Below are positions 1-13,853 of a DNA stretch of 29,254 nt, piece after piece. The stretch is taken from assembly GCA_022571175.1 (NCBI GenBank), contig JACZYI010000001.1, positions 1 through 29,254 of the forward strand. The letters run 5' to 3'. This DNA is from Pseudomonadota bacterium. Lineage in GTDB: Bacteria; Pseudomonadota; Alphaproteobacteria; Sphingomonadales; SMXR01. Each line of letters opens with the position of its first letter. Position 1 is the stretch's first letter. The position numbers and the translations under genes were made by a program. The notes beneath the pieces were generated by a model. The model saw nothing but the letters and a program-made list of their open reading frames with translations, was not told the origin of the DNA and made no database searches.

Positions 1-378
1 CTCCTCACTCAAGAACCTTTGCAATTTTTGCGGATATTCGGCTTTTGGTATTGCAGTGCAAGTCTCCCAATGAGCTATCGTGCCCTCATCTATATTGAGC
101 ATTTTTGCCAAACGTTTTCGCGAAAATCCAAGAGTACGTCCACGATGAGCAATTTTTTCTCCCAATCTCTTTGGTGGTGGTAACGGATCGTAGTCGAGGA
201 ACTCAATAATCCGGGGTAGGTAGTGAACCTGTGGAAGTGTTTTATTTTTTTCCCAGTTGCCGAGCGTCCAATCACAGACGCTAAATCTTTTCGCCACATC
301 TTTTTGGAAAAGGCCAAGCTCATACCGCCTTTTGAGGATGTGTTCTCCAATAGTTCGTGGTGATTTCGGATAAGGCAT
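1..378 (-). CDS. Tandem XRE/Cro-C1 helix-turn-helix protein; runs off the left edge of the window; frame extends upstream to ATG 426
   Basis: Not in the ORF track because it has no stop inside the window. Hand translation from ATG 378 (GAGAG just upstream): MPYPKSPRTIGEHILKRRYELGLFQKDVAKRFSVCDWTLGNWEKNKTLPQVHYLPRIIEFLDYDPLPPPKRLGEKIAHRGRTLGFSRKRLAKMLNIDEGTIAHWETCTAIPKAEYPQKLQRFLSEE. Two XRE-type HTH repeats (GEHI.KRR.ELGL.QK.VA...NWE and GEKI..R...LG.S.K.LA.ML.IDE.TI..WE). Confidence 0.85.
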   Translation of the reverse strand, partial: MPYPKSPRTIGEHILKRRYELGLFQKDVAKRFSVCDWTLGNWEKNKTLPQVHYLPRIIEFLDYDPLPPPKRLGEKIAHRGRTLGFSRKRLAKMLNIDEGTIAHWETCTAIPKAEYPQKLQRFLSEE

Positions 379-425
379 TGATCTCTCAACAGAAAGTCGA
401 AAATGACAGGAAGGCAATGCCACCA
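1..425. mobile_element. Terminal segment (att junction) of a probable integrative element inserted in comM/yifB
   Basis: ComM similarity starts abruptly at about 414-428. Upstream DNA in the comM frame has a stop and encodes an unrelated HTH protein on the other strand. Hand count of GC: 186/420 (44%) for 1-420 versus 164/300 (55%) for 421-720. comM is an established integration target. No recombinase lies in the window. Confidence 0.7.
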
Positions 426-917
426 TGTCGCTGTGGCTATCTGGATGATCCGGCAATGGCGTGCAGCCGTGCACCAAAATGCGCCACTGAATATCAATCC
501 AAGATATCCGGCCCCTTGTTTGACCGGATTGACATTCACATTGATGTGCCGGCGGTCAAGGCGGGCGATTTGACCTTGCCACCCCCGGCTGAAGGTAGTG
601 CTGAGGTTGCGGCACGGGTACAAAAAACCAGACAGATTCAACTGGACCGCTATCGAGACCTGGAGTCTCCAGAGATCATCCGCACCAATGCCCAAATTGA
701 TGGCAAGCTGCTGGAAAAGGTTGCAGCACCGAGCACAGAAGGGAAGGCCTTAATGGAGGAGGCGGTGGAAAAAATGCACCTCACCGCCAGGGGCTATCAT
801 CGAGTACTCAGGGTTGCCCGAACGCTGGCAGATATGGAAAGGCAGGAAAAAATTGCCCGACATCACTTGGCAGAAGCCTTGAGCTATAGAAGAATAGCGC
901 CCCAAATGTTGGGATAA
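417..917 (+). pseudogene. comM: 3' fragment of YifB/ComM Mg-chelatase-family AAA+ ATPase; lacks the N-terminal and Walker A/B regions
   Basis: PCRCGYLDDP...C...YQSKISGPLFDRIDIHIDVP and LTARGYHRVLRVARTLAD...HLAEALSYR are ComM C-terminal signatures. The usual AAMNPC reads KAMPPC and nothing upstream matches. Confidence 0.9.
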
Positions 918-977
918 TACGGTAAAATCTCTGCTCGCCTCTTTTATTCCACAAACCAAACCTTAAGATGCTTGGTC

Positions 978-2351
978 ATGGACCAACACCGTCACACCAT
1001 GCGTGAAACGCTATTATTGTTTCTGCAACCGAAGCAGCTTGTGGTCTTTTTTATGGGCATGGCTCAGGGAGCCCCTAACGCGCTCATCTCTGGCACCTTG
1101 ATGTTCTGGTTATCAGAAGTCGGGCGCAGTAATTCGGAAGTCGGGCTCTTTGGTTTTGCGATCGCCGCTTATGCTCTGAAGCCTCTGTGGGCGCCCTTTC
1201 TGGATCAGTTTAATATTCCCTTTCTGGCACGTTGGCTTGGTTCCAGGCGGGCCTGGCTTGTGGTTTTGCAGTTGCTGTTAATAGCGTCCATCACCGGCCT
1301 CGGGCTGACCGACCCGGAAAATAACCTGATGGCAACGGCTATTTTTGCTGCCACTATCGGCTTTCTTTCAGCGAGCCAGGACATTCTGACCGATGCCTTT
1401 CGCATCGAAATTCTTACAGATGATGAGCAAGGCGCAGGCGCAGCCATGGTGCAGTTTGGCTGGCGGGTTGGTGCCCTCATGACCGGGGCAGGCACATTGC
1501 TAATGGCAGATCAATATGGCTATGCCTTTGCCTTCACCATTTCAGCATTTTTCATTCTGCCTGGACTTGTTGCTGTCCTGATCTGGGGCGAGCCGGAACA
1601 TATTGAAACGGTTGAGGCACGCCACATTCGCGAAGAATCCGAAGCTTTTATCAAGGCCCAAGGGCTCACGGGCAGGCGAGAGTTGATCTTTGCGAAACTG
1701 AACACCACGATCATCTCACCTTTCCGCGAGTTTATGACTCGGCCCGGCTGGTGGCTCATTTTGCTTTTCATACCGCTCTTTAAGTTGGGCGATGCGGTTG
1801 GGCTCAACCAGTTCAGCCCCTTTCTGGTTGATCTTGGATATACGGCAACAGAATCGGCGCTTGCCAACAAAGTTGCGGGCTTGCCGCCCCTGCTGCTCGG
1901 CGTTGCTGTTGGTGGTACAATTTATTATTCTCTCGGCACCTTTCGAGCATTAGTGGTGGCAGGCGTAATGATGATGGTCACCAATCTGGCATTTGTCTGG
2001 CTGGCAGGCGTAGGGCATTCCACACCCGGACTGATGGTAACCGTCGGGGTCGAGAACTTTGCCAGTGGTGTGGGTGGAACCGCGGTGGTGGCTTATCTCT
2101 CTTCACTCTGCAATCGAAGTTTTACAGCCACCCAGTATGCGCTGCTTGCCGGATTTTCATTATTACCGCGGGGAATCTTCGCCAGCTTTGCCGGGTTTAT
2201 TTCCGAACAGGTGAGTTGGGAGATGTTCTGGGTTTACTCAACCCTCCTGGCCATCCCAGGCCTATTGCTACTATTCGCCATGCGACGAATGGTCTTTGAC
2301 GAAGACGGCAATCCACTGCGCAAAAAGGCGAGTCCAGCGGCTCCTAGCTAG
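978..2351 (+). CDS. ampG: AmpG-family muropeptide MFS transporter
   Basis: G.AQG.P..L, YALKPLWAP.LD, G.RRAWL, SASQDI..DAFRIE, NRSFTATQYALL motifs; many TM segments. Start could be 972, 978 or 999. Confidence 0.9.
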   Translation: MDQHRHTMRETLLLFLQPKQLVVFFMGMAQGAPNALISGTLMFWLSEVGRSNSEVGLFGFAIAAYALKPLWAPFLDQFNIPFLARWLGSRRAWLVVLQLLLIASITGLGLTDPENNLMATAIFAATIGFLSASQDILTDAFRIEILTDDEQGAGAAMVQFGWRVGALMTGAGTLLMADQYGYAFAFTISAFFILPGLVAVLIWGEPEHIETVEARHIREESEAFIKAQGLTGRRELIFAKLNTTIISPFREFMTRPGWWLILLFIPLFKLGDAVGLNQFSPFLVDLGYTATESALANKVAGLPPLLLGVAVGGTIYYSLGTFRALVVAGVMMMVTNLAFVWLAGVGHSTPGLMVTVGVENFASGVGGTAVVAYLSSLCNRSFTATQYALLAGFSLLPRGIFASFAGFISEQVSWEMFWVYSTLLAIPGLLLLFAMRRMVFDEDGNPLRKKASPAAPS

Positions 2352-13133: not shown

Positions 13134-13853
13134 ATGTTTTCAATACAGTCGGTCGTATGCAAGGTGTTTTGGGCTTGTTTGTTAAGCGTGAGCCTTGCTG
13201 CCTGCACCAGCGGTATTCGCTCCGAAGTGGTCAGTTTCCATAAGTTGCCATTGCCGGCTGGCGAGCGCATTGCCATTGTTCCCCTAGATGACGAAATGAC
13301 TGCAGGTCCGGAATTTGAGCATTATGCGAATCTGGTTGGTGCCAAGCTTAGCGCTTTGGGATATACCCCGGTGGGGTCTGGTAATGCTGATCTAATTGTT
13401 AAAATCTCCTATCAGATTTCCGAGGGACGGGACAAGATTCGCGAATTACTGGGCGGGCGTATGGGCCTGACCTACCATTATCCTTATTCTCCGGCATTTG
13501 GTCTTGGCTATTCATTCCACCCGTTTTCGTATTATTTCGGGCATGGTTATGGTTTCGGGCATGGTTATGGTTTCGGGCATGGTTATGGGTACGGATACGG
13601 ATACGGATATGGACTTCGTGCGGGATATAGCGACTATTATTCCTACACCATTTATACTCGGTCGCTCGAAATGAAAATCGAATCGACTGAGGGCGAAATT
13701 ATCTATGAAGGTCGGACTGTAAGCGAAGGGCTTAAAAAGAATTTACCAGAAATCATGCCTTATCTGATTGAAGCCATGTTTACAAATTTCCCCGGCGAGA
13801 GCGGCGTGACCCGGACGGTGCGAGTGGAAATCGCCAATGGAAAAAGTTATTAA
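13134..13853 (+). CDS. DUF4136-like lipoprotein with a Gly/Tyr/His-rich low-complexity loop
   Basis: Lipobox LAAC at residues 21-24; Y.RSLEMKI...GE.IYEGRTVSEG...MPYLIEAMFTNFPGESG C-terminus typical of DUF4136 proteins. Confidence 0.7.
   Translation: MFSIQSVVCKVFWACLLSVSLAACTSGIRSEVVSFHKLPLPAGERIAIVPLDDEMTAGPEFEHYANLVGAKLSALGYTPVGSGNADLIVKISYQISEGRDKIRELLGGRMGLTYHYPYSPAFGLGYSFHPFSYYFGHGYGFGHGYGFGHGYGYGYGYGYGLRAGYSDYYSYTIYTRSLEMKIESTEGEIIYEGRTVSEGLKKNLPEIMPYLIEAMFTNFPGESGVTRTVRVEIANGKSY
13535..13613 (+). repeat. Three perfect 18-bp tandem copies (TTTCGGGCATGGTTATGG) followed by TACGGA-type hexamer repeats
   Basis: Copies at 13535-13552, 13553-13570 and 13571-13588; TACGGA x3 plus TATGGA at 13590-13613. 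Encodes (FGHGYG)3 then YG repeats. Confidence 0.95.

Follow-up and report, generated by a model that had tools for sequence, protein, structure and literature searches.

Homologues of the Mg-chelatase/ATP-dependent protease family are the most enriched target of large serine recombinases (LSRs), with 12.4% of the predicted site-specific LSRs targeting Mg-chelatase/ComM homologues, and disruption of competence has been proposed as a strategy (Durrant et al. 2022, PMC10083194). In Acinetobacter, comM is the classic target of the Tn7-like AbaR islands (PMC11472951); comM is not mentioned in PMC8627217. Attachment sites placed inside a gene of the element itself have also been described. In Myxococcus phage Mx8, attP lies inside the integrase gene, and the enzyme made from the prophage (IntP/IntX) differs from that of the free phage in its 3′ end, which is new, and in its activity (PMC6070905). 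The archaeal SSV-type ("suicidal") integrases likewise have attP inside the integrase gene, such that integration splits the enzyme (PMC8371274). As reviewed in PMC9262239 (Broussard 2013), BPs and the cluster G/N/P mycobacteriophages carry attP inside the repressor gene, which provides a switch of state that needs no separate directionality factor.

An LSR island in comM is an element of a known kind. The split recombinase gene of the family described here is a new variant, of which the window (the whole stretch of 29,254 nucleotides that was analyzed, which is the entire contig C224) supplies the tail-side junction only. Comparison with the elements of Durrant et al. shows the same recombinase class (in related loci), the same target gene family, and the same proposed interference with competence; the difference is that no LSR is present on the contig of the window. 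Neither an attP within an LSR reading frame nor a detachable tandem-HTH tail is described in PMC10083194, and no description of an attP inside a serine recombinase reading frame was found in the open literature searched. As in the Mx8 and SSV systems, integration changes or splits the enzyme by way of an attP in the enzyme's own gene. However, those enzymes are tyrosine recombinases and in the SSV type the catalytic body is cut, whereas here the serine recombinase retains its full set of canonical domains and is deprived only of an accessory tail, which persists at the opposite end of the element as a gene of its own. The two designs are alike in logic only, as the family enzyme harbors Resolvase and Recombinase (serine) domains and no tyrosine recombinase domain. 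The BPs-type phages are similar in that integrated and free forms encode different proteins; they differ in that it is the repressor that is cut, with loss of a degradation tag, in having a tyrosine integrase, and in targeting a tRNA gene.

The window comes from a MAG of 270 contigs that is 78% complete, and there is no DNA to the left of its base 1; the public runs that contain this contig carry the label marine sediment metagenome. Its plus strand contains the native 3′ part of comM/yifB (426 to 917, stop codon at 915 to 917), which by Pfam comprises the end of the Mg_chelatase AAA+ domain and Mg_chelatase_C. The surrounding open frame, 357 to 917, contains ..NDRKAMPPCRCGYLDD.. and matches positions 155-205 of the 207-position Mg_chelatase profile at its residues 20-70, followed by a complete Mg_chelatase_C. 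Thus, with only the last quarter of Mg_chelatase present, the first ~350 residues of ComM are missing. The product of 426 to 917 and the ComM of relatives share 60-72% identity in the stretch of residues ~348-511. Intact ComM proteins from relatives of the same family and the same order are 506-528 aa long and contain the motif ..QL[VIL]AAMNPCRCGYLDD.. at the junction position, which places the start of comM homology at the Cys codon TGT, 426 to 428. An earlier note on this DNA had claimed that comM is split at its AMNPCxCG motif and that GC content steps from ~44% to ~55% there. Both points are confirmed: ComM homology runs from the CRCG codons onward, and the left side is foreign and of lower GC content (44.3% at 1 to 400 and 54.5% at 401 to 800).

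Downstream, an AmpG-like MFS gene (972 to 2351, plus strand) is, by synteny in relatives, the conserved neighbor of comM. Indeed, a full-length AmpG-like homologue directly follows comM on the same strand in 7 of the 11 relatives' loci that were fetched, and two more gave partial matches. This conserved comM-ampG synteny indicates that the right flank is host chromosome and that 426 to 917 is the 3′ end of the host's own comM. In one locus from the window's family, L009 (G003:C30), comM matches only from residue ~214 though the locus extends upstream, which may reflect another kind of comM interruption in a close relative.

Head-to-head with the comM 3′ part, on the minus strand, lies a tandem XRE-type HTH gene that corresponds to the detached C-terminal tail module of the LSR (1 to 426, ATG at 426 to 424). 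Its 3′ end is cut by the end of the contig, leaving it ~1-3 terminal codons short of the 143-aa copy on contig C123 of the same MAG (P0003), to which the tail protein is 73% identical. Pfam detects HTH_3 in two stretches. The gene opens at 426 with M-V-A-L-P-S-C, exactly at the element boundary, and this arm-encoded ALP[FSIC]C motif also marks the LSR/HTH boundary of fused genes described below. Free-standing relatives of the tail are rare, forming 15 clusters that are mostly found on ~1-kb contigs, and on three of those contigs a truncated comM stands head-to-head with the tail relative. A crude sigma-70 scan of the host flank gave no promoter for the tail gene, which is uninformative.

The element side of the boundary has a simple layout. 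An arm, GGCAATGC, at 413 to 420 of the plus strand, which is one base off the family consensus GGCAACGC and forms an inverted repeat of GCGTTGCC, stands 5 nt from the crossover and encodes on the minus strand the Ala-Leu-Pro of the tail's conserved ALPFC start. It is followed by the 5-nt spacer CACCA (421 to 425), identical in the C123 copy, which, read on the minus strand together with the T of the next dinucleotide, supplies the tail gene's ATG. The crossover most plausibly falls at this dinucleotide, TG, at 426 to 427, which is the center of attP symmetry and makes up codon positions 1 and 2 of the first Cys in comM CxCG. Contig C123 holds a second copy of window bases 5 to 427 (80% identical), in which the alignment reaches ..GCCACCATG and ends exactly after 427, the flank beyond being non-comM. 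Logan contigs of runs X2 and X3, from two other studies, also diverge after 427, into two different flanks: the X2 contig reproduces the C123 flank, and that of X3 is a third copy, ~91% identical over 63 to 427, that continues into another flank (AGACACCGTAACGG..). Three distinct right flanks that share a single boundary fix the element end at 427. The earlier note had put the crossover near CCACCA (420 to 425), which is right as to locality; the exact place is one base further right. Its reading of GCA ATG on the element side as a mimic of the host Ala-Met codons does not stand, as these letters are part of the conserved arm GGCAAYGC. Host-motif mimicry was rejected in that the arm mostly reads GCA ACG in family members and is also present at attP forms and at non-comM sites.

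Several further features of the boundary were seen. An AGGAAGG motif with an ATG at 417 to 419 (window 408 to 419) is in frame with the C-terminal part of ComM and rests on a single T of the arm GGCAATGC. Since the C123 copy and most relatives have C at that T (ACG), a conserved restart signal for ComM is unlikely. In the C123 copy (C123:12297-12719, minus strand; locus L002, G000), the tail gene and arm occupy an intergenic non-comM site upstream of a histidine-phosphatase-like gene. The flank there, TG-ATTT-TGCG.., has only the TG-N4-TG-Y-G pattern in common with comM, and the copy is thus probably a pseudo-attB insertion. A short hairpin-like repeat, GTCYGCT..AGCGGAC, occurs at or near contig ends (C123:12761-12794, C250:6987-7020 at the contig end, and C135:2190-2214), and an Rfam search of the C123 end gave no match. 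An exact scan of genome contigs for the 29-nt element end also found no match, this end being too diverged outside the lineage.

The same layout recurs in a widespread family. In its four attP forms, written in the direction of the recombinase, the site is GGCAACGC-N5-CA-N5-GCGTTGCC and lies inside the LSR reading frame; the attP of L090 has perfect 15-nt inverted-repeat arms centered on CA. The arm keeps a constant distance of 5 nt from the crossover in 75 sites, and CA (equal to TG) occupies the central position in 65 of these. The attL sites consist of the left arm, the spacer, and CA followed by NGGATTCAT, the complement of comM ATG-AAT-CCN, and attR sites of the complement of the comM CxC codons followed by CA, the 5-nt spacer, and GCGTTGCC. 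The corresponding attB is comM ..ATG AAY CCN TGY NNN TGY GG... Four sites have TG in the tail direction (L056, L062, L066, and L067), and in these the insertion into comM has the opposite orientation. In serine integrases such as phiC31 and Bxb1, the central dinucleotide sets orientation. A reversed dinucleotide accompanied by a reversed insertion is thus expected if the dinucleotide determines polarity. Here the comM 5′ half comes first and the tail gene after it, both on one strand (..AAYCCN-TG-N5-GCGTTGCY).

At the DNA level, a search of species-representative genomes returned 259 candidate stretches, 223 of which encode a tail relative. These confirmed loci come from Acidobacteriota, Bacteroidota, Verrucomicrobiota, Planctomycetota, Nitrospirota, Chloroflexota, Patescibacteria, and Proteobacteria. 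We fetched 80 of the 223 and mapped 84 loci in total. By tblastn, a comM fragment that starts from residue ~348 lies directly upstream of the tail gene, on the opposite strand, in 53 of the 84 mapped loci. The breakpoint is the same at the base level, with the reverse complement of the comM CxC codons standing right before CA-N5-GCGTTGCC in 47 of the 61 sites with CA. Altogether, a comM junction like that of the window is seen in ~48 loci from many phyla, and the family is patchy in the window's own order (6 of 201 genomes).

The recombinase is found at the other end of these elements. In five of five genomes with the HTH/comM-3′ junction there is an LSR open frame of 500-532 aa that is 56-68% identical to the LSR part of L071, and in all five a comM 5′ piece (residues ~6-355) directly adjoins the 3′ end of the LSR in convergent orientation. 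No intact comM was found in these five genomes. The arrangement extends to the window's order, in which the LSR abuts the comM 5′ half in G065 and in the complete genome G127. Where both ends are on one contig, the elements measure 24.3, 43.8, 44.0, and 57.9 kb. In the window's own MAG, tblastn with the ComM of relatives recovered the 3′ fragment only and tblastn with three LSR bodies recovered nothing, which at 78% completeness implies absence of neither. The serine-recombinase class that the earlier note suspected is thus corroborated by the related genomes, which also hold at the other end both parts that it expected upstream, the comM 5′ half and a recombinase; neither was found on contig C224 or elsewhere in the MAG.

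One complete 24.3-kb island, in Leadbetterella sp. DM7 (L125/L126, G032:C8:12.9-37.2 kb), contains a second LSR of 590 aa, NYN, KAP NTPase, and HNH genes, and a conserved trio that includes two TraG/VirD4-like ATPases and recurs in at least seven related elements; the island showed no full conjugation apparatus.

In other genomes the recombinase and the tail are a single protein. Fused frames of 654-725 aa (stop to stop) occur in L071, L090, and L024, with the HTH module as the last ~140 residues. Pfam shows Resolvase, Recombinase, and two HTH_3 stretches in all three and scored Zn_ribbon_recom in L024 only; L063 is likewise fused, is cut by a contig end, and was not part of the Pfam scan. At least 41 protein clusters in a collection of 5.8 billion proteins have the fused LSR-HTH form, few of them named ("recombinase family protein," "site-specific DNA recombinase," "transcriptional regulator with XRE-family HTH domain"). 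Full-length comM is present in five of five genomes that hold a fused or attP form. A circularity test of the contigs with fused genes in L071 and L090 gave no terminal overlap. When the attL and attR halves were joined in silico, the resulting frame was open across the joint in all five LSR-split genomes (639-669 aa where the length was printed), and the joints QRNF/IPALPFC and QRNH/RVALPFC resemble the natural fusions QHNFIPALPIC and QRNHRVALPCC. At the level of sequence, comparison of the loci establishes the structure of the sites, the two gene configurations, and their perfect association with split and intact comM.

Collectively, these data make it very probable that window positions 1 to 427 are the tail-side (attR-type) end of a widespread integrative element of this LSR family, with comM as attB and attP inside the LSR-HTH frame. 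The window is assigned to the family by its tail gene, its arm, and the geometry of the junction. The proposal in the earlier note that this is the right end of an integrated island in comM finds support in the family comparison as an attR-type junction at the AAMNP/CxCG codons. LSRs bind attP and attB as dimers, bring them into synapsis, cut at the central dinucleotide with 2-nt overhangs, rotate subunits, and religate. In the fused form, attP separates the tandem-HTH tail of ~140 aa from an LSR body that is complete (Resolvase, Recombinase, zinc ribbon, and coiled coil; ~500 aa), and synapsis with attB, cutting at the dinucleotide, rotation, and religation would be expected to follow the general mechanism. 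Integration would break two genes: comM, at the TG of the codon for the first CxCG cysteine, and the recombinase gene, so that at the far end a tail-less LSR converges on the comM 5′ half and at the near end the tail gene comes to stand head-to-head with the comM 3′ half, the arrangement present in the window. Excision would restore comM and the fused LSR-HTH gene together.

The tail-side junction is also found without a recombinase nearby. In many related loci the same junction has no LSR within 10 kb and full-length comM upstream. Modules of this kind, in which full-length comM is succeeded by nothing but cargo, then a tail gene and a displaced 3′ fragment of comM, were seen in L034, L041, L042, L046, L060, L073, and L098, stacked in L083, L084, and L092, and in G127:C1:590-644 kb. 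Candidate origins for them are an attR-by-attB exchange in trans and Campbell-type recombination. In L080, a 61-bp direct repeat of the tail gene 5′ end (L080:9950-10010 and 13644-13704, 88.5% identical) surrounds a 3.6-kb cargo segment, and the second repeat copy adjoins the comM 5′ half, where the LSR would be expected. In staphylococci, composite SCC arrays at rlmH hold ccr-less elements. The present arrays are similar in that serine-recombinase-dependent elements and recombinase-less modules stand in tandem at one att site (G127, L083, L084, and L092) and differ in recombinase subfamily and target, and in that the modules here also carry the 3′ end of the target gene.

Because the same junction occurs with full-length comM upstream or without an LSR, the junction alone proves neither a broken comM nor an autonomous element. 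The window could accordingly derive from a recombinase-less module of a composite array, in which case the left-hand DNA would represent a cassette of cargo with the tail gene at its end, comM would be rebuilt or full-length upstream and not inactivated, and the LSR would act in trans. This account keeps an appreciable probability, though well short of even. Eight loci have full-length or nearly full-length comM 1.6-7.6 kb beyond the tail gene, with only cargo and a duplicated comM 3′ fragment involved; the fragment is 79-99.9% identical to the full copy in seven of them and undetectable at the DNA level in L032. Modules in tandem are present in L083, L084, L092, L034, and L075, and in G127, from the window's order, two LSR-less modules whose arms are identical come after a single LSR element. 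That no LSR was found in the window's own assembly would also fit, but that assembly has gaps, mobile DNA frequently goes unbinned, and no comM 5′ sequence of whatever kind was found in the MAG. The outermost junction of an array, beside the native downstream genes, looks alike whatever lies upstream, so the window by itself does not discriminate between this origin and that of a single LSR element.

We give very little weight to the explanation that an unrelated regulator gene came to lie beside a comM remnant through misassembly, contig chimerism, or a simple deletion. The MAG is fragmented into its 270 contigs and C224 begins just 427 bases before the comM junction, circumstances in which such an error is conceivable. 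However, a 1026-nt Logan contig of run X1, built independently, matches window 168 to 1191 with zero differences and crosses the junction, which indicates that the join is real and excludes an assembly artefact; X1, a marine-sediment run in which 83% of the sampled words were present, is possibly the source sample. In addition, the same base-exact junction of tail gene and comM recurs across phyla in dozens of unrelated genomes, far above chance. The join, which the earlier note had named as a possible misassembly, is thereby upheld. Logan contigs of four runs, with patchy cover, yielded no empty attB and no circular attP of the source organism, the two forms that the note had proposed to look for in reads. 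Searches for neighbors of C224 or C123 by overlap of contig ends gave nothing useful.

Least credible of all is the end of a Tn7-like (AbaR/Tn6022-type) transposon, which would share with the present element the comM target known for AbaR in Acinetobacter (PMC11472951) and an island-like cargo, but AbaR/Tn6022 elements use TniQ-guided transposition, another position in comM, and target duplication, none of which is seen here, while the element end has no TGT..ACA type or other Tn7-type terminus and is half of a perfect inverted-repeat attP centered on a dinucleotide, the LSR is the linked enzyme in five of five complete examples, one annotated related island (which carries LSRs and no Tn7 genes) and the recurrent ORF clusters contain no transposase, and comM can be rebuilt in silico without a target duplication.

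Under the favored reading, in which the window is the tail-side end of an LSR-family element integrated in comM, the fate of the tail invites a functional proposal. Purely as a hypothesis, the enzyme's direction or regulation could change when integration strips it of the tail and leaves the tail behind as an independent gene, often with an ATG of its own that the spacer provides. A more specific version, which we hold tentatively and think rather unlikely, is that the gene cut at its att site serves as a memory of state: the fused LSR-HTH protein would integrate, the tail-less LSR and free HTH protein would excise or repress, and recombinase-less cargo would ride on the tail/att unit. In the free circle, the LSR with its covalent tandem-HTH tail would be competent for, or targeted to, integration at comM, and in the integrated island the free HTH protein might act as a directionality factor or as a repressor of excision.

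The attB, at the CxCG codons of comM, is precise and conserved across phyla, and the attP is symmetric with a mapped dinucleotide, which makes the family useful for the discovery of recombinase tools. The two gene configurations also offer a testable idea, namely that a serine integrase could sense integration without a separate directionality gene, since integration removes its own DNA-binding tail. Finally, comM fragments beside such elements do not always mean a broken competence gene; related loci hold full-length comM beside displaced 3′ fragments.
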